IMG/VR virus record: IMGVR_UViG_2541047881_000001
DNA from: a virus
Taxonomy: Duplodnaviria > Heunggongvirae > Uroviricota > Caudoviricetes
Reading direction: 5' to 3' (one strand)
DNA length: 10,771 bases
Below, piece by piece: positions 1 to 10,771 of this stretch. How positions within the stretch are numbered: the first letter of the stretch is position 1; each line of letters opens with the position of its first letter. Position numbers and translations under genes: made by a program. The notes under the pieces are model-generated. The model was not told the DNA's origin. It did not search any database and saw only the letters and a program-made list of their open reading frames with translations.

Positions 1-102
1 ATGGCCATGAATGGCGTTGGATGCCGGGCAACTGCCCGCATTATGGGCGTTGGCCTCAACACGATTTTACGTCACTTAAAAAACTCAGGCCGCAGTCGGT
101 AA
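1..102 (+). CDS. insA: IS1 InsA, C-terminal 33 codons (5' partial at window edge)
   Basis: Frame 1 translates [33 protein letters not shown] then stop (TAA at 100-102), matching the InsA C-terminus as recalled. The A6C slip site sits inside it. Confidence 0.8.
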
Positions 103-524
103 CCTCGCGCATACAACCGGGCAGTGATGTGATTGTCTGCGCTGAAATGGACGAACAGTGGGGCTACGTCGGTGCTAAATCACGTCAGCGCTGGCTGTTT
201 TACGCGTATGACAGGATACGGAGGACAGTTGTGGCGCACGTTTTCGGTGAACGCACTCTGGCCACACTGGAGCGTCTTCTGAGCCTGCTGTCGGCCTTTG
301 AGGTCGTGGTATGGATGACGGATGGCTGGCCGCTGTATGAATCACGCCTGAAGGGAAAGCTGCACGTTATCAGCAAGCGTTACACTCAGCGCATTGAGCG
401 ACATAATCTGAATCTGAGACAACATCTGGCAAGGCTGGGACGGAAGTCACTGTCGTTCTCAAAATCGGTGGAGCTGCATGACAAGGTCATCGGGCATTAT
501 CTGAACATAAAACACTATCAGTAA
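21..524 (+). CDS. insB: IS1 InsB (C-terminal part of the InsAB' transposase), 167 aa
   Basis: ORF track 21..524; the translation [58 protein letters not shown]...HYLNIKHYQ is near-identical to E. coli InsB as recalled. Confidence 0.93.
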
Positions 525-534
525 GTTGGAGTCA

Positions 535-1682
535 CTACCCCTGTTGTCGCTTGTTGTAATCGTTTATTGATGAATTTAGTACGTCCTGAGCAATTTTTTC
601 TGCTTGAAGTACGCCCAATTGCTGCTTTAATCGTGCCAGCCTTTTATTTTGAGCTCCGCCATCTCCAATGCCACCTAACCCGAAAACTCCGGGTCGGGTA
701 TTTTTTTCTATTTCATCAATTTGACGGAGAACATCTGAGATTTTTTGATCAAGGGAGGTCTCACGGCCAATATCCAGCATGGAATCCCATGCCCATTTTG
801 CGGAGTCTGCGACAGCTTTCCATGCAGTCTCAAGATAACCAAGATTTTCTTTAATCTGGTTGGTGCGCTGGATCATTGAGGATGAGTATTCTTCTGTCGC
901 AATGCGGGCGGCCTCCTGCTGGTTCCCTTCATCCTGTAGCGCCTTAATCTGGTTATAAGTCGCAAGTGTCAGAAAATGGTACTGATCATTAAGTTTTGAT
1001 ATGGCACTGACAGGATCCTTTGCAATTTCATTGAAGTCATTAACCAGTTGTTCGGTTGATATTCCTGTTACTTCGCTCGTTTTTACTATCGCTGTCGTCA
1101 CTTGCTCCAGCGAACTGCTCGCTACCTTTCCCGAACGCACAAGCTGATTTAATACTGCCGCCGCAGCACCAGTTGTCGAATCAGCCGCATTCCCGGCACG
1201 TTGAGCTATATCGCCCAATTGCCCGCTGGTTGTCCCCAACTGATTTCCGGTAAGAATAAGAGATTTATTAAATTCGTCCTGCTCCTGAGAGCCTTTATAG
1301 TAAGCCAGTCCTAAGACCCCAACGGCTGCTGCGGCCAGGGTAAAAGGATTAATTAATCCCAGCACATAAGAACCTACACCTTTGATCGCCGGGCCAATCC
1401 CACCGAACATATCTTTTAGCTGGCCGCCCTGCTGCATTAACACCATAAATGGCGACTGACCAGTGGACAACCCAACAACAATATCCGTCATTTGTGCAGG
1501 CAACATGCGCATAGCAAAAGCCGTTTGTTTTGCCGACATTCCGGTTTTGCTTAATTGTGATTGAGTAACCTCAAGCTCACTCCGCATAGCACGAAGTTTT
1601 CCAGAAAGCCCCTCATACATTTCAGGAGAAAGCATCCCCTTAGCTTTTGCTTCATTGAGCTGTTTCTGTTGTTCTACCAGAC
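535..1682 (-). pseudogene. Lambda H-like tail tape measure protein, N-proximal fragment of about 380 codons, truncated by IS629 at the 5' side and by IS1 at the 3' side
   Basis: ORF 535..1635 contains [39 protein letters not shown]...[13 protein letters not shown], which aligns with the N-terminal region of lambda gpH ([39 protein letters not shown]...SDFNKTLVLSGNQ, recalled). The frame stays open upstream of the listed ATG through the IS629 junction at 1682/1683. The stop TAG at 535-537 is supplied by the IS1 terminus. At about 380 codons it is far shorter than a full tape measure (about 850 aa in lambda). Confidence 0.8.
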
Positions 1683-1724
1683 TGAACCGCCCCGGGTTTC
1701 CTGGAGAGTGTTTTATCTGTGAAC

Positions 1725-2615
1725 TCAGGCTGCCAGATCATCGTTTCCGATGGAAGCATAATAAGCTTTTTCTGCTTCTGCCGGAGGAGTATGGCCCAGC
1801 CTTTCCAGCAATCGTCGATTGTTATACCAGTCCACCCACGTGAGTGTGGCCAGTTCCACTTCTGCACGGTTTTTCCAGCTCTTACGGTGTATTACCTCCG
1901 CTTTGTAAAGACCATTGATGCTCTCCGCCATCGCGTTGTCATACGAGTCGCCTGTACTTCCTGTTGATGCCAGTAATCCGGCTTCCTTAAGCCGCTGTGT
2001 GTAGGCCAGCGATACATACTGAGAACCTTTATCACTGTGATGGACCGTGCCGGACGGTCGACGGGCCCATAACGCCTGCTCCAGTGCATCCAGCACGAAT
2101 GTCGTTTCCATGGACGATGAGACCCGCCACCCCACGATGTATCCGGCAAACACATCAATGATGAACGCCACATAGACGAAGCCCCGCCATGTGCTGACGT
2201 AAGTAAAATCAGCCACCCACAGCTGGTCAGGTCGTTCTGCCACGAACTGACGGTTTACGCGGTCGCCTGCGGCAACGGCTTTCCGGCTGATGGTCGTACG
2301 GACCTTTTTACCCCGGAGAACACCGGCAAGTCCCATAACCGCCATGAGGCGCGCCACTGTACATCTGGCCACCCTGATTCCTTCCCGTAACAACTGACGC
2401 CAGACTTTACGCACACCGTACACCTGATGATTTTCATCGTATACGCGCTGTATCTCTCTCTTCAGCCAGTCATCGTGCTGCGCACGGGCACTGCGTTTAT
2501 CCGGATGATGTCGCTGTTGCTGACAATGGTAATACGTTGACGGGGCAATATGCAGTTCGCTGCATACCGGTCCGACCCCGTACTGCTCACGCAGCTTATC
2601 CAGCAGTGGCATCAT
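1725..2615 (-). CDS. IS3-family transposase OrfB (DDE catalytic domain), expressed as OrfAB fusion by -1 frameshift
   Basis: ORF track 296 aa in the -1 frame relative to OrfA, overlapping its end at TGGAAAAAATGATG (A6 run at 2615-2620). It contains integrase-core-like segments ([32 protein letters not shown]). Confidence 0.9.
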
Positions 2616-2938
2616 TTTTTCCAGAGGCGGTCGAACTCCGCCTTCGCAAAATAAGCGGAAGCCTGGCGAAGGATATCGTTACTGCGGCGCAGTTCACGAT
2701 TTTCACGTTCCAGCTCTTTCAGACGCTGACGTTCAGCGCTGGTGAGCCCACCATCACCGCCCCCGGTATCCCGCTCATGCTGGCGAACCCAGACACGCAG
2801 AGTCTCCGGCGTACAGCCAATCTTTGGGGCAATGGAACAAATTGCCGCCCACTGTGAGTCATATTCATCCTGACTTTCCAGAACCATACGGACTGCCCGT
2901 TGACGGACTTCGGGGGAAAAACGAGTATTTTTAGTCAT
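2612..2938 (-). CDS. IS3-family transposase OrfA (HTH DNA-binding, leucine-zipper region)
   Basis: ORF track 108 aa, [60 protein letters not shown]...; ATG at 2938; ends at an A6 slip site. Confidence 0.9.
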
Positions 2939-2992
2939 CCTGTTTACCTCTTTCTCAGGAAGTTTAGTCTCCAGGATTCCCGGGGCGGTTCA

Positions 2993-3133
2993 CTTCATCT
3001 TCGTTAGGCCATTTTGGGAGATAATTTTCCCCCTGCCTGCGCATTTCAAGCGTACCGCCCATCAGTGCGTCGTTAATATCCCACGCCTCCAGCATATCGT
3101 TATAGTCGAGGTTGGGTGTTGATATATCAGCCA
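2993..3133 (-). pseudogene. Phage portal-like protein, N-terminal 47 codons only, truncated by IS629
   Basis: ATG at 3133 lies 4 bp after the terminase large subunit stop. The translation MADISTPNLDYNDMLEAWDINDALMGGTLEMRRQGENYLPKWPNEDE runs straight into the IS629 inverted repeat at 2992. The portal assignment rests only on the conserved position immediately after the large terminase gene. Confidence 0.45.
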
Positions 3134-3136
3134 TAA

Positions 3137-4447
3137 TTAAATCCGAAGTGATGTGACTCTTCCGGTCGGTTTGACAATAGGGAATTGCTTAACGATGAAA
3201 TAACCTCCGGCATCATTCGGGTGATCATTGCCAGATTTTTTATCAGGCTCCCCCTTCTCATCCCAGACCTGTTGCTCCAGAGATTCGGCATATAACGGGC
3301 AACGCTTCACATTAACTTTATAGCGACGCTCACCATTGGCATTGCAGAACATTGCATTCATTGAGTTAACGCGATCTTTTACTGGCGGGTTCGAGCTGTT
3401 CACCACAACGTTAAAACCAGCCTGCTTAAGCTGGGCTATATCCGTCGTACTTGCGTTACTTGATTTTCTGGAATCCCCGGAAGCATCTGGATAAATATAA
3501 ATTTCCCTCACTTTCCGGTAATCATTCCCATCATACAGCCAGAAGCGTTCTTTAATGATGCGGATCATATCCGGCGTATCGTAGGCATTGATGATTTCAG
3601 TTACCGCACATGGAAGCCCCAAACGCAGCACATGGACGATTCCCGCCATCTTTCCAACGTTAAAATCCATCCCAATATAAATCGGCTCCCCTGGCTGCTC
3701 CACTTCTTCGCAATTATTCAGTTTCCGGTCAAACTGATGGTAAACAGTACCACTTGTCAGGTTAGTAAACTGTCCTCGAAGATAGGCTTTAATCAGCTCT
3801 GGAGGGTATGATTCAAGAAGCGAAGGAATGTAATCTGCTGGCAGGTTCTTTTCATTATCGAAAGTAGATGCCTGCACCAGACCATACAGTGAGGCCAGCT
3901 CTGTTTTTTCACGCACGGCTTTAACAAACTGCTCGTAGACAAATTTGAATCCTTCCGGCGTGGTTGTAACGTCAATACCGTTGCGAAGTCCATCAATCTT
4001 ATAACGCATACGTGCAATTATCTTGCGCCACGCCGTTCTGGCTTTTTCCTTCGGCAAAATGTCCAGTTCATCCACCAACGCATTACCAATTTTGAAACCG
4101 ACGATCGTTTGTGGCTTCTCCATCGATCTGCAGATAGTGGTTCCCCGATACTGGCGTCCGTAATAAAAGTGAACCTCTTTATTTCCCTCATTAATTTTTA
4201 CGTTCAATCCCCAGTCAGCAGCAACTTCTTCCACTGTAGGGTAAAAAATATCGCGAATTTGGGGATACGTTGGCGCAAAATATCCCTGATTTATACCTGG
4301 ATGCTCCCAAATCCCCTTGCATATGCCGCCACACCCAACCCATGTTTTGCCCGAGCCAAAACCAGCAATATAGGCTTTAAATTTATGGGGCATTGAAAGA
4401 AATCGCGCCTGAGGCACATTAAGCGTCGGAGAGATCATCTTCATCAC
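3137..4447 (-). CDS. Phage terminase large subunit (ATPase/nuclease)
   Basis: ORF track 436 aa. Walker A-like AGFGSGKTW near the N-terminus and Walker B-like hydrophobic stretch NALVDELD; overlaps the upstream small terminase gene. The listed start at 4447 is GTG; an ATG at 4438 preceded by AAGGAG about 8 nt upstream is the more likely start. Confidence 0.85.
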   Translation of the reverse strand: MMKMISPTLNVPQARFLSMPHKFKAYIAGFGSGKTWVGCGGICKGIWEHPGINQGYFAPTYPQIRDIFYPTVEEVAADWGLNVKINEGNKEVHFYYGRQYRGTTICRSMEKPQTIVGFKIGNALVDELDILPKEKARTAWRKIIARMRYKIDGLRNGIDVTTTPEGFKFVYEQFVKAVREKTELASLYGLVQASTFDNEKNLPADYIPSLLESYPPELIKAYLRGQFTNLTSGTVYHQFDRKLNNCEEVEQPGEPIYIGMDFNVGKMAGIVHVLRLGLPCAVTEIINAYDTPDMIRIIKERFWLYDGNDYRKVREIYIYPDASGDSRKSSNASTTDIAQLKQAGFNVVVNSSNPPVKDRVNSMNAMFCNANGERRYKVNVKRCPLYAESLEQQVWDEKGEPDKKSGNDHPNDAGGYFIVKQFPIVKPTGRVTSLRI

Positions 4448-5513
4448 TCCTTACTCTGGCATCAACCACATTAATATTGATCGCCACAGGCTGGGGATGT
4501 TCATTATCTTCCACCGTTTCGATCTCTTTGCGCAGCTTCTGGTTTTCCATTCTGCGCCGTTCAATTTCCAGTTCCTGTAGCCGTTTATCTGCACATAAAG
4601 CCCCGCCAGCAGAAAACAAACGCAACAATTCACGCCGGGCGGCAGCCTTATCCTCCAGCAGGATCTCAACGCCGAATTTTCCGAATTTTGCCCCTGCATA
4701 TAATTGCCGCGCATCCCCATCAAGCAGAGTGGTATCAGCCATATAAAGCTGTCCCGTTCCCTCACCGCAGCACTTCGGGCAGTCCGGATTGGGTATGGCG
4801 TTATCAACAAAGCCGAGGCCTCCATATTCCGGTTCGGGTTTGCCATCTCTGGAAGCCTGCGCCGCTGCCTTGTCGAATTCTGCTATATCGCGCCACTGGT
4901 AGAGATGATTCTCGCCCCAGCAATAACGGCAGTTAACACGGCGAAATTGTGCAAGCTGATTGGGGTCGGCCAGGACAATAGCCATCAACTGACTCACTAG
5001 TAAATCCAGGTCTGCGGTATAGCGTTTCTGGTACTGATTGCGGAAGTAGCTGATAGCGCGAAAAACCCTGGCATTTCTAAGCATACGACTGGCGTTGCTG
5101 TTAGCTGTCGCACCTTGCCCCTCATAACCGGCTAGTCGGTACGCCTCTGTCGGCTTTTTACCCTGAGCAACAAGCATCGCAAACTTAGCCTGCTGGTCAG
5201 AAATGCCGAATTCATCGGGACAGAACGAAAATTCCTCCGCGTCGCCCTCATTCAGGCCCGCATCGAATACTGGCTTTTTTTCCTGAGATTTTTCGTTCCG
5301 CTTTTGTGCAGTCTGCGCAGATTTTTTCTGCGCACTTTTTTGCGCAGTTTTGCACATTTCTGTCTGCGCATTTTTCGGAGTTTTTTTGATGTAACGACGG
5401 GCTGTTGCGTAATTCAGTCCCCTTGCTTCACACCATGCCACCGGAGATATACCGGAGCGGGTGTATTCAGCAATATACTCCTGCTGCAACGCCCCCCAGT
5501 CCGGTCTGCTCAT
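4419..5513 (-). CDS. Phage terminase small subunit (long form with extra N-terminal HTH, K/A/Q-rich repeat linker and Cys cluster)
   Basis: ORF track 364 aa, immediately upstream of and overlapping the large subunit. The segment SDQQAKFAMLVAQGKKPTEAYRLAGYEGQGATANSNASRMLRNARV resembles the small-terminase DNA-binding motif (Q..F..EY....T.AY..AGY.......AS.LL.N..V). The N-terminal 50 aa look like an additional HTH. Confidence 0.65.
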   Translation of the reverse strand: MSRPDWGALQQEYIAEYTRSGISPVAWCEARGLNYATARRYIKKTPKNAQTEMCKTAQKSAQKKSAQTAQKRNEKSQEKKPVFDAGLNEGDAEEFSFCPDEFGISDQQAKFAMLVAQGKKPTEAYRLAGYEGQGATANSNASRMLRNARVFRAISYFRNQYQKRYTADLDLLVSQLMAIVLADPNQLAQFRRVNCRYCWGENHLYQWRDIAEFDKAAAQASRDGKPEPEYGGLGFVDNAIPNPDCPKCCGEGTGQLYMADTTLLDGDARQLYAGAKFGKFGVEILLEDKAAARRELLRLFSAGGALCADKRLQELEIERRRMENQKLRKEIETVEDNEHPQPVAININVVDARVRSDEDDLSDA

Positions 5514-5516
5514 CAG

Positions 5517-5768
5517 TTAGTCCTGATTTTTATCCACCCTGAGTAGTTCGCGCAGAGCAAAGGCATCCCCTTTTCTGGCAAGCTTAAACAATGCCGCTCG
5601 TAACTCGGCTTCACCTTTCGCTCTGCCCTTACGGATGGCCGCATAAAAATCTGTCATTGCTTCCCGATTTTCTTTCAGTCGGTTCAGATCAACATCCAGA
5701 ACGTCAGCGATTTGTTGTGCAGTCATCCGGCACGCTGCCAGAGACTCGACTTTCGAATACGGAATCAT
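5517..5768 (-). CDS. Small hypothetical phage protein (83 aa), possibly DNA-binding, translationally coupled to the small terminase gene
   Basis: ATG at 5768 is preceded by GGGGGTGA at 4-5 nt. Its stop lies 3 bp before the small terminase ATG. It is a basic, helical-looking sequence (TAQQIADVLDVDLNRL...AIRKGRAKGEAELRAALFKLARKGD). No confident family assignment. Confidence 0.5.
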   Translation of the reverse strand: MIPYSKVESLAACRMTAQQIADVLDVDLNRLKENREAMTDFYAAIRKGRAKGEAELRAALFKLARKGDAFALRELLRVDKNQD

Positions 5769-6657
5769 TTGTCACCCCCATTGATATGCAGGGTGTCTTC
5801 TTCCTGTATTTTTCGTGAAGGATTTTTACTGCAGCGTTGTTCCAGGTGACCTGATGGTGAATGCGTTTATGGCTGGCACCCATCAGTGAGATTTTTACGC
5901 ACGACGGCGCATACATGACGGAGTAAAAACTTTTAACGTAGGTTGCGGAATCCAGATACAGCTCGGTCATTCCGCCGCTGTTTTTCTGCGTCTGTTTCTG
6001 CCCTAACTGGACAGCACCGATCGTCATAAACAATTCACCACAGCGACCGAGATTCGTGTACGTATTCACATCCTCGTTAATGCGCCCCATGAATGAGAAC
6101 GGTCGATCAACCGAACAGATAAAGCTGTTCATTGCCTTGCGTTTCACCCACGAAGCATGGCCGCCATTGTCACCAAGAAAATCCCCGCCCTGCGACATAG
6201 CGATGGAAAGAGCAGGTATTGATTCGTAGTACGCCAGCATTTCAGAAAGGATCGCATCCAGTTTCCTTATCGGAAAATAGGCCTGGTCATAGTTGCGATC
6301 CACCCGAAACTGGAACTCGTGATAATCATCATCGAGCTGAATGAAGTATTTACACCCGACCAGTTTTGCCAGGTCGAAACAGGCATTACGGGCGTAAAAA
6401 ATTGAGCGGCGGTCACAGAAATTATCGGCTTCGTCAAAACGACTGGCGATATCGGCTTTGGAAAACACCAGCACCTGTTCACCAAATTCAGCCATGTACT
6501 GATGCCGTGTCTTATCTTCATCATCAACCACGATAAAAATTTTCCCGGTATAGCCAGCACGACGCAACGTCCGGTAAGTCAGAACTTTGTCCGGTCGCCC
6601 GTGAGTCAGAATAAAGGCGCAAAAATCATCACGCATATTCCTCCTCCTCACCACCAT
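5704..6657 (-). CDS. Hypothetical phage protein with GT-A-like acidic (DxD-type) motifs; candidate nucleotide-sugar or other nucleotide-dependent transferase
   Basis: ORF track 317 aa. The likely true start is the ATG at 6636, with GAGGAGGAGGAA directly upstream, overlapping the ParB-like gene stop as ATGCGTGA. Motifs FILTHGRPDKV, IFIVVDDED and YFIQLDDDYHEF (hydrophobic strand followed by an acidic cluster) resemble GT-A fold glycosyltransferases. No transmembrane segment. The function is inference only. Confidence 0.55.
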   Translation of the reverse strand: MVVRRRNMRDDFCAFILTHGRPDKVLTYRTLRRAGYTGKIFIVVDDEDKTRHQYMAEFGEQVLVFSKADIASRFDEADNFCDRRSIFYARNACFDLAKLVGCKYFIQLDDDYHEFQFRVDRNYDQAYFPIRKLDAILSEMLAYYESIPALSIAMSQGGDFLGDNGGHASWVKRKAMNSFICSVDRPFSFMGRINEDVNTYTNLGRCGELFMTIGAVQLGQKQTQKNSGGMTELYLDSATYVKSFYSVMYAPSCVKISLMGASHKRIHHQVTWNNAAVKILHEKYRKKTPCISMGVTNDSVFESRVSGSVPDDCTTNR

Positions 6658-7420
6658 GCATGATCTCCACCATGCGCTGCGTCATCCGGACAAATCCATT
6701 TTCAATAGCCTGCTGATAATCAATGATCACCAGCGCCGACTCCTCGAAAAAACACTGAATTTCAGAGGGGGCGTGAGCGTAATAGTCCGCAATTCTGCTG
6801 AAATTAAACACCGTGTGACGTTCTGCCGCACACAGGAGGAATTTCTCAATATCAGGCTCAAGGGACGCCGAACGTATCCGGCTGATCAGCTCCTGAGTTT
6901 TCGTATCGTCGTACAGTTCACTGATATCCGGTTTACCGCCCGACGGCTCATAAACAGGCGTATCAATTTTCGTCGTATACGGCTCCTCCTCATTTCCTGT
7001 ACCGGGCAAAACATCCGTCAACAGTTCATCAATTTCTGTCGGGATGAAGCCTGTCAGGGAGACATCAAAATCAGCATTGATTAGGTCCGACAGCTCCATC
7101 CGCAACAGATCTTCATCCCAGCCAGCATTCATCGGCAGGCGATTATCTGCCAGGCGGTACGCCTTTTTCTGCTCATCCGTCAGGCCAGACAGAACAATGA
7201 CCGGAACAGAATCCATTTTGAGCATTTCAGCCGCCATAACACGACCGTGACCCGCAATAATTTCGCCCTTTTCGTCAATCAGCACCGGATTAGTCCAGCC
7301 GAATTGCTTAATACTTTCTACCAGTTGTGCCACCTGCTCAGTACTGTGCGTCCTGGCGTTGTGCGCATACGGTGACAATTCTTGTAATGGGCGATAGACT
7401 ATCTTTAATTTCTCGCTCAT
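6629..7420 (-). CDS. ParB/Srx (ParB N-terminal nuclease-like) domain protein with acidic C-terminal tail
   Basis: ORF track 263 aa. The N-terminal 100 aa (IVYRPLQELSPYAHNARTHSTEQVAQLVESIKQFGWTNPVLIDEKGEIIAGHGRVMAAEM...LTDEQKKAYRLADNR) fit the ParB/sulfiredoxin fold pattern, including a GxxRxxA box (GHGRVMAA, compare GERRxRAA in ParB). The C-terminus is highly acidic (GGEEEEYA). Confidence 0.8.
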   Translation of the reverse strand: MSEKLKIVYRPLQELSPYAHNARTHSTEQVAQLVESIKQFGWTNPVLIDEKGEIIAGHGRVMAAEMLKMDSVPVIVLSGLTDEQKKAYRLADNRLPMNAGWDEDLLRMELSDLINADFDVSLTGFIPTEIDELLTDVLPGTGNEEEPYTTKIDTPVYEPSGGKPDISELYDDTKTQELISRIRSASLEPDIEKFLLCAAERHTVFNFSRIADYYAHAPSEIQCFFEESALVIIDYQQAIENGFVRMTQRMVEIMHGGEEEEYA

Positions 7421-7435
7421 ACAGCCTTGCTTTAT

Positions 7436-7470
7436 GAATAAAACGCACCCCAGCAGCCAGTGCTACTGGG
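7436..7470 (-). terminator. Candidate rho-independent terminator downstream of trkG
   Basis: On the minus strand: CCCCAGTAG-CACTGG-CTGCTGGGG (9-bp stem with one G-U pair, 6-nt loop) followed by TGCGTTTTATTCAT. Located between the trkG stop (7558) and the ParB-like start (7420). Confidence 0.4.
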
Positions 7471-7557
7471 GACGGAGGGGTTGCTGGTAAAGTTAGGTAT
7501 TGGATCAATGAGTGAGTCAACATAATATTAAACTCACAATTATAAATCAGCCATATA

Positions 7558-9016
7558 TTAGGAGCGCCAAAAAAAACCTGAAAACAATATAATAACAGGA
7601 TAAATTTCAAGGCGACCAAGAATCATAGCTATGCACATTAAACATTTTGCAATGTCATTAAGCACTCCGAATGACGATGCAGTAGCCCCAAAACCTAATC
7701 CCATATTATTAATACATGCAGCCACTGTTGCAAATGATGTAAGAAAATCATATCCCATACCATTTAACACCAGTATAAAAAACACCGTGAAGAGAGTATA
7801 AAGAAAAAAGAAACTCCATACAGACCTCATTACACGATCTGTAACTATCTTCCCTCCTACATTTACACTCAACAACGCTCTGGGATGAGAAAGCTGATTT
7901 ATCTCGTGTTTGCTTTGTTTGAAAAGTATAAGAAATCGAAGTGACTTAATTCCACCACAAGTTGAACCTATACATCCCCCAAAGAAACTTGACAACAGCA
8001 AAAACACTATCGTGTGCGTGGGCCAACTTGCATAATCCTGCGTAGCTAAACCATTATCAGTGAGCATGGAGCTGGCAAGAAAAAACGAATGAATAAAACT
8101 TCCATGCAAGTCATACATACCTATATGCCAGACCTGGAAAGAGGTAACAATGATCACCCCTAAGGCTATTAACAGAAAGAAACGAAGTTCAATATCTCTG
8201 ATTAAAGGTTTTATCGTTTTCCTGCTAATAACAATATACCAAAGAGTGAAGTTGAAAGCCGATAGCAGGGAAAAAGAACCAGCCACCAGCTCAACCAAAT
8301 AGTTATTAAAATATCCGATACTCTCGCTATGAGTTGAGAAACCACCAAGCGAAACTGTGGAAATCCCGTGACAAATAGCATCAAACAAAGGCATTCCTGC
8401 AAGTCTATAACAGACAATACAAGCAATACCTAATAAAGAATAAGTTATCCACAGTGTCCGTGACGTATCGGCCAGGCGGGGAGTGAGTTTGTCATCCTTA
8501 AATGGCCCCGGCATTTCTGACTGATAAAGCTTTGCACCACCAATACCCAATAATGGCAATACAGCAACCGCCAGAACAATAACTCCTAAACCACCTATAA
8601 AATTTAACTGTGACCGATAGTACAAATATGCCCGAGGTAATGAACTAACATCATCAATTACAGTTGCTCCTGTTGTTGTTATTCCAGAAACCCCTTCAAA
8701 CAGAGCATCAATGAACGTTAAATTAAGTTCTGAGTCAATCCATAAAGGGAATGCACTAATAACAGAAAACAAAATCCAAAACATTACAATTATAATAAAC
8801 CCATCACGGGTACGTAATTGAATGCCAGATTTCTTAGTTGTATACCACGCTCCGCCACCAATGCAAAAAAAATATAACGAAAGTTATAAAGAAAACGAAC
8901 AGGCTTTTTTCTTTATAAAACAATGCTACAACCATTGGTGGCAACATTGAAAGACTATAGAGCCAAACCAGGAACCCACACATATGAGTAACAACTCTTA
9001 CATGAGATGTATTCAT
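7558..9016 (-). pseudogene. trkG: TrkG/TrkH-family K+ uptake protein, disrupted by a +1 frameshift in a homopolymer run
   Basis: Two overlapping ORFs in different frames (8834..9034 and 7558..8784) together read MNTSHVRVVTHMCGFLVWLYSLSMLPPMVVALFYKEKSLFVFFITFVIFF / CIGGGAWYTTKKSGIQLRTRDGFIIIVMFWILFSV...GGLGVIV...GFSTH.... The frame switch falls in the A8 run at 8865-8872 (T8 on the coding strand). Removing one base gives one 485-codon ORF from the ATG at 9016, the length recalled for Rac-prophage TrkG. TrkH-type signatures are present (GITTTGATV, GGLGVIV, LGGFSTHS). Confidence 0.85.
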
Positions 9017-9034
9017 ATCTAAATATTCTTTCAA

Positions 9035-9153
9035 TTATAACCACCTTGCTGCAATATTATGATTATACTGTATAAAATTTAACTCCTCTTAGATCTTACT
9101 TCACTGTTCCTTATGAAACAATCATCAAAATGAATCATATTGTAGTTAAGATT
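9035..9153 (-). promoter_or_regulatory. AT-rich upstream region of trkG with candidate sigma70 -10 elements
   Basis: Intergenic region between the Rz stop and the trkG start. It is very AT-rich and has TATAAT hexamers on the minus strand at about 9044-9049 and 9063-9068. No convincing -35 was found, so this is a low-confidence call. Confidence 0.3.
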
Positions 9154-9618
9154 TTACTTTAAACACTGCTCGGTTATGTATTGCTGAGCACCTTCAAGTT
9201 GGGCCTGCATCATTACCAGTCGTTCCCGGAGGGTGAAATAATCCCGTTCAGCGGTGTCTGCCAGTCGGGGGGAGGCTGCATTATCCACGCCGGAGGCGGT
9301 GGTGGCTTCACGCACTGACTGACAGACTGCTTTGATGTGCAACCGACGACGACCAGCGGCAACATCATCACGCAGAACATCATTTTCAGCTTTCGCATCA
9401 GCTAACTCCTTCGTGTATTTTGCATCGAGCGCAGCAACATCACGCTGACGCATCTGCATGTCAGTAATGGTGGCGTTCGCCTTCTCCAGTTCACTGGCCT
9501 TGTTATCGCGCTGTTCTTTGTAGGCGATTGCATTATCACGGTAATGATTAACAGCCCATGACAGGCAGACGATGATGCAGATAACCAGAGCGGAGATAAT
9601 CGCGGTTACCCTGCTCAT
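9154..9618 (-). CDS. Rz: Rz i-spanin (inner-membrane spanin subunit)
   Basis: From the ATG at 9618 the product is [31 protein letters not shown]...[45 protein letters not shown]..., closely matching lambda Rz as recalled. The start overlaps the endolysin stop as ATGA. The ORF-track start at 9630 is a GTG 12 nt upstream. Confidence 0.9.
9213..9398 (-). CDS. Rz1: Rz1 o-spanin lipoprotein, nested in the +1 frame of Rz
   Basis: ORF track 61 aa, [52 protein letters not shown].... It has a lipobox (VVGC) and a proline-rich mature region, entirely embedded in Rz, and matches lambda Rz1 as recalled. Confidence 0.88.
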
Positions 9619-10112
9619 TGTTGCCCCCACAAACAGACCTCACGCTCAATCTCACGACGAGTCATCAGGCCTTTCCATTGCTTACCGCCAGCGTATGCCC
9701 AGCGACGTAGCTGGTCACATGCGCCCTTGATATCGCCCTGGTTTATTTTGCGAAGAAGAGTAGATGTTCTGAAATTGCCTGCGCCCACGTTATAGACGAA
9801 CGAGTAAAGAGCGCCGCGCGTTGTTTCCGGTATATCGACTTTGATGTACGGGTTAATTTGTCTGGCTACCGTGGCAAGGTCTTTATTCAGGAGGGCTTTG
9901 CATTCTGCTTCGGTATACGTTTTACCGGGAATGATGTCTTTTCCTGTATGCCCGTGACATACAGTCCATACGCCAACGATATCTTTGTATGGTATGTAGC
10001 TGACACCTTCCAGACCATCGTTACCACTTGGGCCAGTGATTAACACTGATGCTATAGCAATTGCTCCGCCACCAATAGCAGCAGCAACGGCTTTTCGTAA
10101 TGATGGAGGCAT
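9615..10112 (-). CDS. R: SAR endolysin (phage 21 R-type lysozyme with N-terminal signal-anchor-release domain)
   Basis: ORF track 165 aa. The N-terminal Gly/Ala-rich weakly hydrophobic segment [20 protein letters not shown] is typical of a SAR domain. A lysozyme catalytic region follows ([24 protein letters not shown]). Near-identical to R21 as recalled. Confidence 0.92.
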
Positions 10113-10327
10113 TATTCACCTCTCGCAGCCTTGCGCTTATCTTCTTTAATCTTGAAATAAAGGTTTGTCAGGTACGTCAGCAGGCCAAATACCAAGCTAC
10201 CCAGCACACCTATTGCTGCCCACTGTGAGGGCGTGACTTTATCGAGCAGCTGTAAAAACCAGTAGCCAGCACTGCCTGCGGAGGTGCCGTAGGCAATGCC
10301 CGTTGTTAACTTATCCATGGATTTCAT
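10112..10327 (-). CDS. S: Class II holin / pinholin (phage 21 S-type) with dual-start motif
   Basis: ORF track 71 aa, [71 protein letters not shown]. It has two transmembrane segments and a charged C-terminus, and a Met1-Lys-Ser-Met4 dual start. SD GGAGGTGAGG lies upstream. Its stop overlaps the endolysin ATG by 1 nt (TAATG). Confidence 0.9.
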
Positions 10328-10420
10328 AGCCTCACCTCCGCAAATAACGGATGGTGTACACGGTTCGGAACGAAGAGGAAAGGTATAGAAGTTACATTAG
10401 CGTAAGGCTTGAACATCTAT

Positions 10421-10454
10421 TCAAAAAGAAAAACGCCGCGATTATTCTGGCGTA
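10421..10454 (-). terminator. Candidate tR'-like intrinsic terminator of the late leader upstream of the holin
   Basis: On the minus strand: ACGCC-AGAATAATCGC-GGCGT followed by TTTTTCTTTTT. The 5-bp stem is short, but the loop and T-tract resemble lambda tR' (GGCCTGCTGGTAATCGCAGGCCTTTTTATTT, recalled). Located about 95-125 bp upstream of the holin ATG. Confidence 0.35.
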
Positions 10455-10544
10455 GCTGAAAGCATCATACAATTATCAAATACGAAAATTACAAAATCAT
10501 TAAAACGCATCACGTTACATCATGTCTTTTTCTAAAAAAAATCT

Positions 10545-10771
10545 GGTAATGACTCCAACTTATTGATAGTGTTTTATGTTCAGATAATGCCCGATGACTT
10601 TGTCATGCAGCTCCACCGATTTTGAGAACGACAGCGACTTCCGTCCCAGCCGTGCCAGGTGCTGCCTCAGATTCAGGTTATGCCGCTCAATTCGCTGCGT
10701 ATATCGCTTGCTGATTACGTGCAGCTTTCCCTTCAGGCGGGATTCATACAGCGGCCAGCCATCCGTCATCC
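10545..10771 (-). mobile_element. IS1: IS1 insertion sequence, partial (right end and terminal inverted repeat; remainder beyond the window), inverted relative to the copy at 1-539
   Basis: GGTAATGACTCCAACTTATTGATAGTGTTTTATGTTCAGATAATGCCCGATGAC... starting at 10545 is the reverse complement of the IS1 right end. It differs from the first copy at terminal positions (CAATAAGTTGGAGTCATTACC here, CAGTAAGTTGGAGTCACTACC in the first copy). Confidence 0.93.
10560..10771 (-). CDS. insB: IS1 InsB, C-terminal part (5' partial; continues beyond the window end)
   Basis: ORF track 10560..10769 gives [69 protein letters not shown], identical to the C-terminus of the InsB at 21..524. Confidence 0.9.

Follow-up and report, generated by a model that had tools for sequence, protein, structure and literature searches.

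A single extra T in a homopolymeric run splits the trkG gene of an Escherichia coli prophage remnant and probably represents a heritable loss-of-function allele

In phase-variable contingency genes, such as those of Campylobacter, Haemophilus and Neisseria, the reading frame depends on the length of a homopolymeric tract in the coding region. Known contingency tracts are longer than the run described here and are highly polymorphic even among close relatives. A second group of described cases consists of the “pseudo pseudogenes,” in which a strain-specific one-base insertion lengthens an A/T run in an otherwise intact gene and transcriptional slippage brings about a rescue (Baranov et al. 2005, PMC1088944). 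The gene under study is a member of the TrkH family (PF02386) of Trk-system K+ transporter subunits, for which solved TrkH structures exist (3pjz, 4j9u) and whose closest described representative is TrkG of the Rac prophage in E. coli K-12. trkG has been characterized as a foreign, phage-delivered gene with a GC content of 38% that is partly repressed by H-NS, and trkH as a core gene that supports growth better than trkG (PMC9898762). TrkG can replace TrkH, needs Na+ and also imports Na+, an influx that was toxic at high Na+ (PMC9898762).

The stretch of DNA analysed here, termed the window, comprises 10,771 nt and is an exact substring of the E. coli scaffold KE701683.1 of assembly GCA_000460355.1 (window 1-10771 corresponds to L209 817-11587). 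Its trkG locus is composed of the following elements:

7558-9016, minus strand: predicted trkG pseudogene (whole locus), 1,459 nt in length, or 1,458 nt if intact
8865-8872: homopolymer that holds the +1 insertion, reading T8 on the coding (minus) strand and A8 on the plus strand, trkG nt 145-152
8834-9016, minus strand: 5' fragment ORF of 60 aa, consisting of 50 native TrkG residues and LHWWRSVVYN, with a TAA stop at 8834-8836
7558-8784, minus strand: 3' remnant ORF of 408 aa, starting at TrkG Met78
8837-8883, minus strand: segment of about 47 nt in which both reading frames are open according to three-frame translations
7569-7576, minus strand: native in-frame T8 run in trkG codons 481-483, four codons before the stop, which serves as an internal control

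A first-pass annotation of the window had proposed that a one-base frameshift in an A8/T8 homopolymer divides trkG, that the upstream frame runs through ...FITFVIFF into LHWWRSVVYN and a stop, and that the downstream frame continues into the 408-aa ORF. All three points are borne out at 8865-8872 by the translations and by alignment. Starting from the ATG at 9016, the upstream frame reads MNTSHVRVVTHMCGFLVWLYSLSMLPPMVVALFYKEKSLFVFFITFVIFF (MNTSHV...FITFVIFF), followed by LHWWRSVVYN and the stop at 8834-8836. The downstream frame is open from 8883 to its stop at 7558 and reads LSLYFFCIGGGAWYTTKKSGIQLRTRDGF... / LSLYFFCIGGGAWYTTKKSGIQ... into the 408-aa ORF, with the ATG at 8784 as its first possible start codon. 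The frame switch thus coincides with the run as proposed, but the overlap of the two frames, put at about 60 bp, measures approximately 47-50 bp (8834/8837-8883). Likewise, the range 8834-9034 assigned to the upstream part corresponds to a mechanical 66-aa ORF opening at TTG, whereas identity with TrkG proteins places the true start at 9016.

In the normal trkG allele, a T7 tract forms the codons of Phe49 and Phe50 and the first base of Cys51 (TTT TTT TGC). In the window, the upstream reading frame departs from TrkG after Phe50: a +1 frameshift at codon 51 leads to ten wrong residues and a stop. Computed repair, in which one base was removed from the run, yielded the single 485-codon ORF that had been anticipated, and the repaired 485-aa protein lies 1-2 residues apart from named 485-aa TrkG proteins. 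In an alignment with a normal strain, the extra T is the sole difference within 101 bp, and in comparison with strain 7/2 it is the only indel across 5,061 bp. As encoded, the locus contains no uninterrupted frame for a whole TrkH/TrkG protein and, to judge from its sequence, is a pseudogene rather than a working member of this family. Its GC content of 38% compares with 46-54% in the neighboring genes.

The 408-aa ORF matches the Pfam TrkH profile (PF02386) with 449 bits at a cut-off of 27 (E=2e-134) and covers profile positions 41-500 of 502, and the 60-aa 5' fragment alone gave no Pfam match. Residues 7-485 of the repaired protein align to residues 4-485 of solved TrkH (4j9u/3pjz, E=1.2e-120), while the alignment of KtrB to the repaired protein begins only at approximately residue 83-84. 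Because TrkH aligns from residue 7 and KtrB only from about residue 83, the break falls in the pair of N-terminal helices by which TrkH/TrkG are extended, and the KtrB-equivalent pore region is kept in the 408-aa remnant.

The genomic context of trkG is dominated by phage genes and insertion elements. On the trkG coding strand, the order is IS1, holin, lysozyme, Rz-like gene, trkG, ParB-like gene, TAGT-family gene, small and then large terminase, and it continues with a 56-aa portal stub, an IS3-family element, a truncated tape-measure gene and IS1. The individual features are:

9154-10327, minus strand: lysis cassette directly upstream of trkG (Phage_holin_2_1, Phage_lysozyme, Phage_lysis)
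10112-10327, minus strand: holin gene of the lysis cassette
9615-10112, minus strand: lysozyme gene of the lysis cassette
9154-9630, minus strand: Rz-like gene of the lysis cassette
2993-7420, minus strand: block from the ParB-like gene to the portal stub, downstream of trkG
6629-7420, minus strand: ParB-like gene, downstream of trkG
5704-6657, minus strand: TAGT-family gene, downstream of trkG
4419-5513, minus strand: small terminase gene, downstream of trkG
3137-4447, minus strand: large terminase gene, downstream of trkG
2964-3134, minus strand: 56-aa stub of a portal (DUF4055) gene, downstream of trkG
1725-2938, minus strand: IS3-family element that cuts the structural genes, with orfA at 2612-2938 (108 aa) and orfB at 1725-2615 (296 aa; NF033516)
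21-524, plus strand: IS1 transposase gene at one edge of the remnant, with a second IS1 copy from about 10536 at the other edge

Beyond the IS1 pair, one flank holds integrase and excisionase genes and ybhC, and the opposite flank holds ybhB-bioA-bioBFCD-uvrB. The window is what remains of a lambdoid prophage, bounded by IS1 and disrupted by IS3, at the lambda attachment site. From IS1 to IS1, this remnant extends over about 10 kb, and regulatory, replication and most structural genes are gone. The portal stub left by the IS3-family element is now joined to the truncated tape-measure ORF (535-1635), a junction that is unique to the source genome among the collections searched. An assignment of the window to the Rac prophage or to Shigella DNA was ruled out, as it is an exact piece of E. 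coli KE701683.1 beside int/xis-ybhC and ybhB-bio. In other strains, trkG occupies the same slot between a lysis cassette and ParB-like/terminase genes, with differing prophage flanks, and the gene was also identified in 10 deposited phage records. Fifteen of the 1,562 trkG places in the complete E. coli genome set are located on plasmids instead of chromosomes. One of these, CP159687.1, exhibits 93.7% identity around the run, which indicates that diverged trkG is also carried by plasmids or phage-plasmids.

The first-pass annotation had suggested a comparison of the run length in trkG orthologues. trkG is present in 1,551 of 5,426 complete E. coli genomes, and the length of the run was recorded in four sets of sequences:

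Complete E. coli genomes (1,526 with the site): T7 in at least 834 as exact matches on the window's flanks; T8 in at least 3 as exact matches
Phage records (10): T7 in 10, T8 in 0, no other form
Metagenome contigs (69): T7 in 66, T8 in 2, an A insertion in 1 (about 2x coverage)
Viral contigs (105): T7 in 103, T8 in 0, T6 in 1, T7 followed by N in 1

Nearly all of the remaining complete genomes show one mismatch to the T7 query. Every sampled row of this group carries the K-12-type base change and spans 79 nt, the same as K-12 and BL21, and no other run length was seen among the sampled rows. The three complete genomes with T8 are NMBU_W05E18 and TK3887, on the window's flanks, and strain C (CP029371), on K-12-type flanks. 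PGAP labels trkG as “frameshifted” in all of them (FVA71_RS12425 in NMBU_W05E18, ACZ5W9_RS11820 in TK3887 and DIZ83_RS03625 in strain C), and the window trkG is 100% identical over 1,459 nt to the genes so labelled in NMBU_W05E18 and TK3887.

Among species-representative genomes, T7 is found in E. coli, E. ruysiae and E. albertii (93% protein identity). The Buttiauxella homologue (68% identity) has no run, and the Morganella homologues (about 62% identity) mostly show TTTTCTTT at the homologous site. Intact orthologues in Escherichia differ from the window at the break by run length alone. Based on the census and on the other Escherichia species, the single-ORF T7 form is ancestral and overwhelmingly common and the two-ORF form a rare derived allele; the suggested comparison has thus returned T7 as the standard form and T8 as a rare one.

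Several homologues outside E. coli exhibit run-length peculiarities of their own. One Morganella sequence (L021) has an in-frame T8 at the homologous Phe-Phe codons. Morganella morganii CYJ1 (L025 2632-2670) has T7 at this place and its gene is out of frame, unlike those of L020-L023, so that the equivalent site of another genus shows either a frameshift or an error of sequencing. In E. albertii NBRC 107761 (L017 around 2621-2632), a second in-frame T8 (GTT TTT TTT ATA) precedes the T7 site by 20 nt, and two tracts prone to slippage thus lie near each other in its trkG.

The 408-aa remnant is recorded in identical form from 248 contigs, a number that does not equal a T8 count as the same ORF arises from any 5' lesion. 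Ten of these places were read, and six of them proved to be T8. In the other four, T7 is followed by GT instead of TG with the same overall length as in T8 (+1; L011 around 5910-5922), the A before the run is lost and a T merges with T7 (-1; L012 around 5905-5920), IS1 is inserted at nt 183-192 (L004 around 5184-5951), or an IS2-like element is inserted at nt 162-166 (L006 around 4598-5930). The metagenome contig with the A insertion (L098 1840-1850, extra A before T7, +1, about 2x coverage) gives the same 408-aa remnant. A search of a collection of 15 billion called proteins did not return the exact 60-aa N-terminal peptide, which gene callers evidently do not call.

At least four trkG haplotypes carry T8, as do at least five backgrounds of the prophage. 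The T8 form is common to TK3887 and L010, whose prophages are 99.99% identical over 8 kb, and to NMBU_W05E18 and L007, whose prophages are 99.89% identical over 13 kb, and in both pairs the assemblies are independent. L006 shares the TK3887/L010 background but has T7 and an insertion element. As independently sequenced close relatives share T8, which random read error would not predict, T8 is a genuine heritable allele of E. coli populations, and its distribution points to slippage that recurs at a weak hotspot. A separate case is the trkG of Shigella flexneri SFBU0723 (L033 2482-3926), which shows 94% aligned identity with 30 gap openings over 1.46 kb, unlike all compared E. coli copies, which are at least 99.6% identical; it looks as if the assembly were error-prone and rich in indels or the copy heavily decayed.

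The best-surviving alternative is that the source strain is truly T7 and that the eighth T is a homopolymer miscount that entered GCA_000460355.1 at the sequencing or assembly stage. Miscounted homopolymers are a classic type of error, and the window lineage is known from this one assembly only among the collections searched. Use of the truncated tape-measure ORF as a lineage probe agrees with the latter point, as its 366-aa version was not on record and its 350-aa version was found in the source genome only. Moreover, two of the three aberrant metagenome contigs, L062 with T8 and L098 with the A insertion, have about 2x coverage, and one viral contig (L105, IMGVR_UViG_2609460218_000012, 7075-7105) carries an N directly after T7 at the same run. 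L105 has a further N 30 nt upstream, likewise in a T-rich place, which makes the uncertainty of homopolymer length in that assembly visible. The source assembly itself, however, contains the other 8-nt run of trkG and all further window runs of at least 7 nt without an indel relative to close relatives, and no other indel was found in comparison with relatives over 5-6.6 kb. The T8 run at 7569-7576 has the same length as in other genomes: 1,469 of 1,534 records match an 80-nt query spanning it exactly, and the other 65 differ by base substitutions or indels, so that this control census gives an upper bound only. A slip at this second run would alter only the last few TrkG residues. Errors at the run in question must also be rare, as at most a few of the 1,526 complete genomes deviate in length, and T8 is real elsewhere, being shared by near-identical prophages from independent assemblies. 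A miscount is consequently considered unlikely, and it is probable that T8 in the source genome is a real mutation.

A different set of explanations accepts the mutation and retains some use for the gene. In the first of these, T8 would be a leaky and reversible “dimmer,” in which slippage of the polymerase or of tRNA-Phe gives a small fraction of full-length TrkG and DNA slippage regenerates T7. On this view, selection for lower activity of a phage-borne, Na+-leaky K+ transporter would explain why T8 and other 5' lesions recur in unrelated E. coli. This scenario is very doubtful, and a related one that assumes a useful amount of full-length TrkG from the T8 allele, either because RNA polymerase drops one U or because the ribosome makes a +1 slip on UUU-UUU-U, is slightly more improbable still; trkG would in that case be down-tuned rather than dead. 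Partial correction at the mRNA level has been described for E. coli genes in which a frameshift has lengthened an A/T run (Baranov et al. 2005, PMC1088944). On seven or more T residues, E. coli RNA polymerase slips with a preference for poly(T), and insertions reach about 0.8% at T6/T7 (PMC6260861), so that traces of full-length TrkG may still arise. As read from the sequence, ...FFCIGGG would be restored if tRNA-Phe re-paired at +1 on the run. Nevertheless, a run of eight is classed as “non-slippery,” nine or more A/T being the usual threshold for slippage in most bacteria (PMC1088944), and the window run has 8 nt. For a rescue, the mRNA must lose one base or gain two, and slips that delete are less common (PMC6260861). 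The run is followed by the codon UUG, no stalling codon or stimulatory element lies beside it, and the expected rescue amounts to about 1% at most. Nor is the two-ORF form conserved together with a slippery run, as the homologues have a single ORF.

Phase-variable expression had been offered in the first-pass annotation as one possible meaning of the tract, which would then be a selected slippage switch between T7 (on) and T8 (off) that tunes a Na+-leaky K+ transporter. The T8 change recurs on several backgrounds and is reversible in principle, and an off state could sometimes pay, since Na+ influx through TrkG can be harmful (PMC9898762). Other lesions (IS1, the IS2-like element, the one-base deletion and the A insertion) cluster in the same 5' 200 nt. 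A switch of this kind should nonetheless be accompanied by frequent length polymorphism, and off-length alleles account for only about 0.2% of the complete genomes, 2 of 69 metagenome contigs and none of 105 viral contigs; besides the three T8 alleles in 1,526 complete genomes, a single T6 was recorded. The tract consists of plain Phe-Phe-Cys codons in an AT-rich gene and is missing from the Buttiauxella homologue and most Morganella homologues. With a short tract and length variants in about 0.2-3% of sequences, the proposal is unsupported and the switch scarcely credible. Programmed recoding or separate translation of the two halves, a conserved form of which would have overturned the pseudogene reading, is ruled out by the clear rarity of the two-ORF form and by the lack of a start before Met78 and of a ribosome-binding motif.

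The interpretation that we favor is that the window carries a real, heritable loss-of-function allele of an accessory, redundant, prophage-borne trkG, which we consider probable. Among the three readings offered earlier (pseudogenisation, phase variation and sequencing error), real pseudogenisation is the one favored by the prevalence of T7, by the “frameshifted” annotations and by the sharing of T8 between independent assemblies. In this model, slipped-strand mispairing during replication of the T7 tract at Phe49-Phe50-Cys51 would have added one T. Ribosomes starting at the ATG at 9016 would then produce a 60-residue peptide, the last ten residues of which are wrong, and terminate at 8834-8836. 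Of the N-terminal hairpin of TrkH/TrkG, which is absent from KtrB, the peptide would comprise the first transmembrane helix and most of the second, and the remaining 408 codons, with the whole KtrB-equivalent pore region, would stay essentially untranslated. No start codon precedes Met78 in the 408-aa remnant, its ATG lies 50 nt past the upstream stop, and no Shine-Dalgarno-like motif was found in the approximately 12 nt upstream of this ATG (TTATAATTGTA). Because of the missing earlier start and ribosome-binding motif, independent translation of the remnant is unlikely. The predicted outcome is a 60-residue membrane peptide and no functional TrkG, and the cell would rely on the core trkH.

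As trkH is a core gene and TrkG is Na+-leaky, loss of trkG in the presence of trkH should be nearly neutral or occasionally beneficial, which fits the location of the gene in a decaying prophage. The prophage remnant is decaying as a whole, and the change from T7 to T8 has arisen several times and remained rare, with no designed switch behind it. The 5' 200 nt of trkG have been hit independently in different strains by a T insertion, a base deletion, IS1 and an IS2-like element. These repeated hits are consistent with weak selection to keep trkG or with occasional selection against it.

The locus is a pseudogene of the ordinary kind, in which a homopolymer frameshift has broken a well-known accessory gene, and identical alleles are already flagged as “frameshifted” in public annotations. 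It should be labelled as a trkG pseudogene and not as two genes, and the K+ uptake of the strain should be credited to TrkH, Kdp and Kup. Of modest wider note, trkG has a weak but recurrent frameshift hotspot in its Phe-Phe-Cys T7 tract.

Compared with the described systems, the window gene is closest to trkG of E. coli K-12. Its repaired 485-aa product is separated from named TrkGs by one or two residues and is colinear with the solved TrkH structures 3pjz and 4j9u, its GC content equals the published 38%, and, like the K-12 gene, it is cargo of a lambdoid prophage between lysis genes and ParB-like/terminase genes. In contrast to the K-12 gene, its frame is broken at codon 51 and it is located at the lambda attachment site (int/xis-ybhC to ybhB-bioA) instead of the Rac site. 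With the “pseudo pseudogenes” it shares the strain-specific lengthening of an A/T run by one base in an otherwise intact gene. The cases of Baranov et al. went from 8 to 9 bases, a slippage-prone length (Baranov et al. 2005, PMC1088944), whereas the window trkG went from 7 to 8. As in phase-variable contingency genes, the length of a coding mononucleotide tract sets the frame, but the trkG tract is short, its variants are rare (about 0.2-3%) and the tract is not conserved outside Escherichia. The “frameshifted” RefSeq trkG genes of NMBU_W05E18, TK3887 and strain C have the same T8 allele as the window. The flanking prophage content of all three differs from that of the window and strain C has another trkG haplotype, and the T8 events in the window and in these strains were probably independent.
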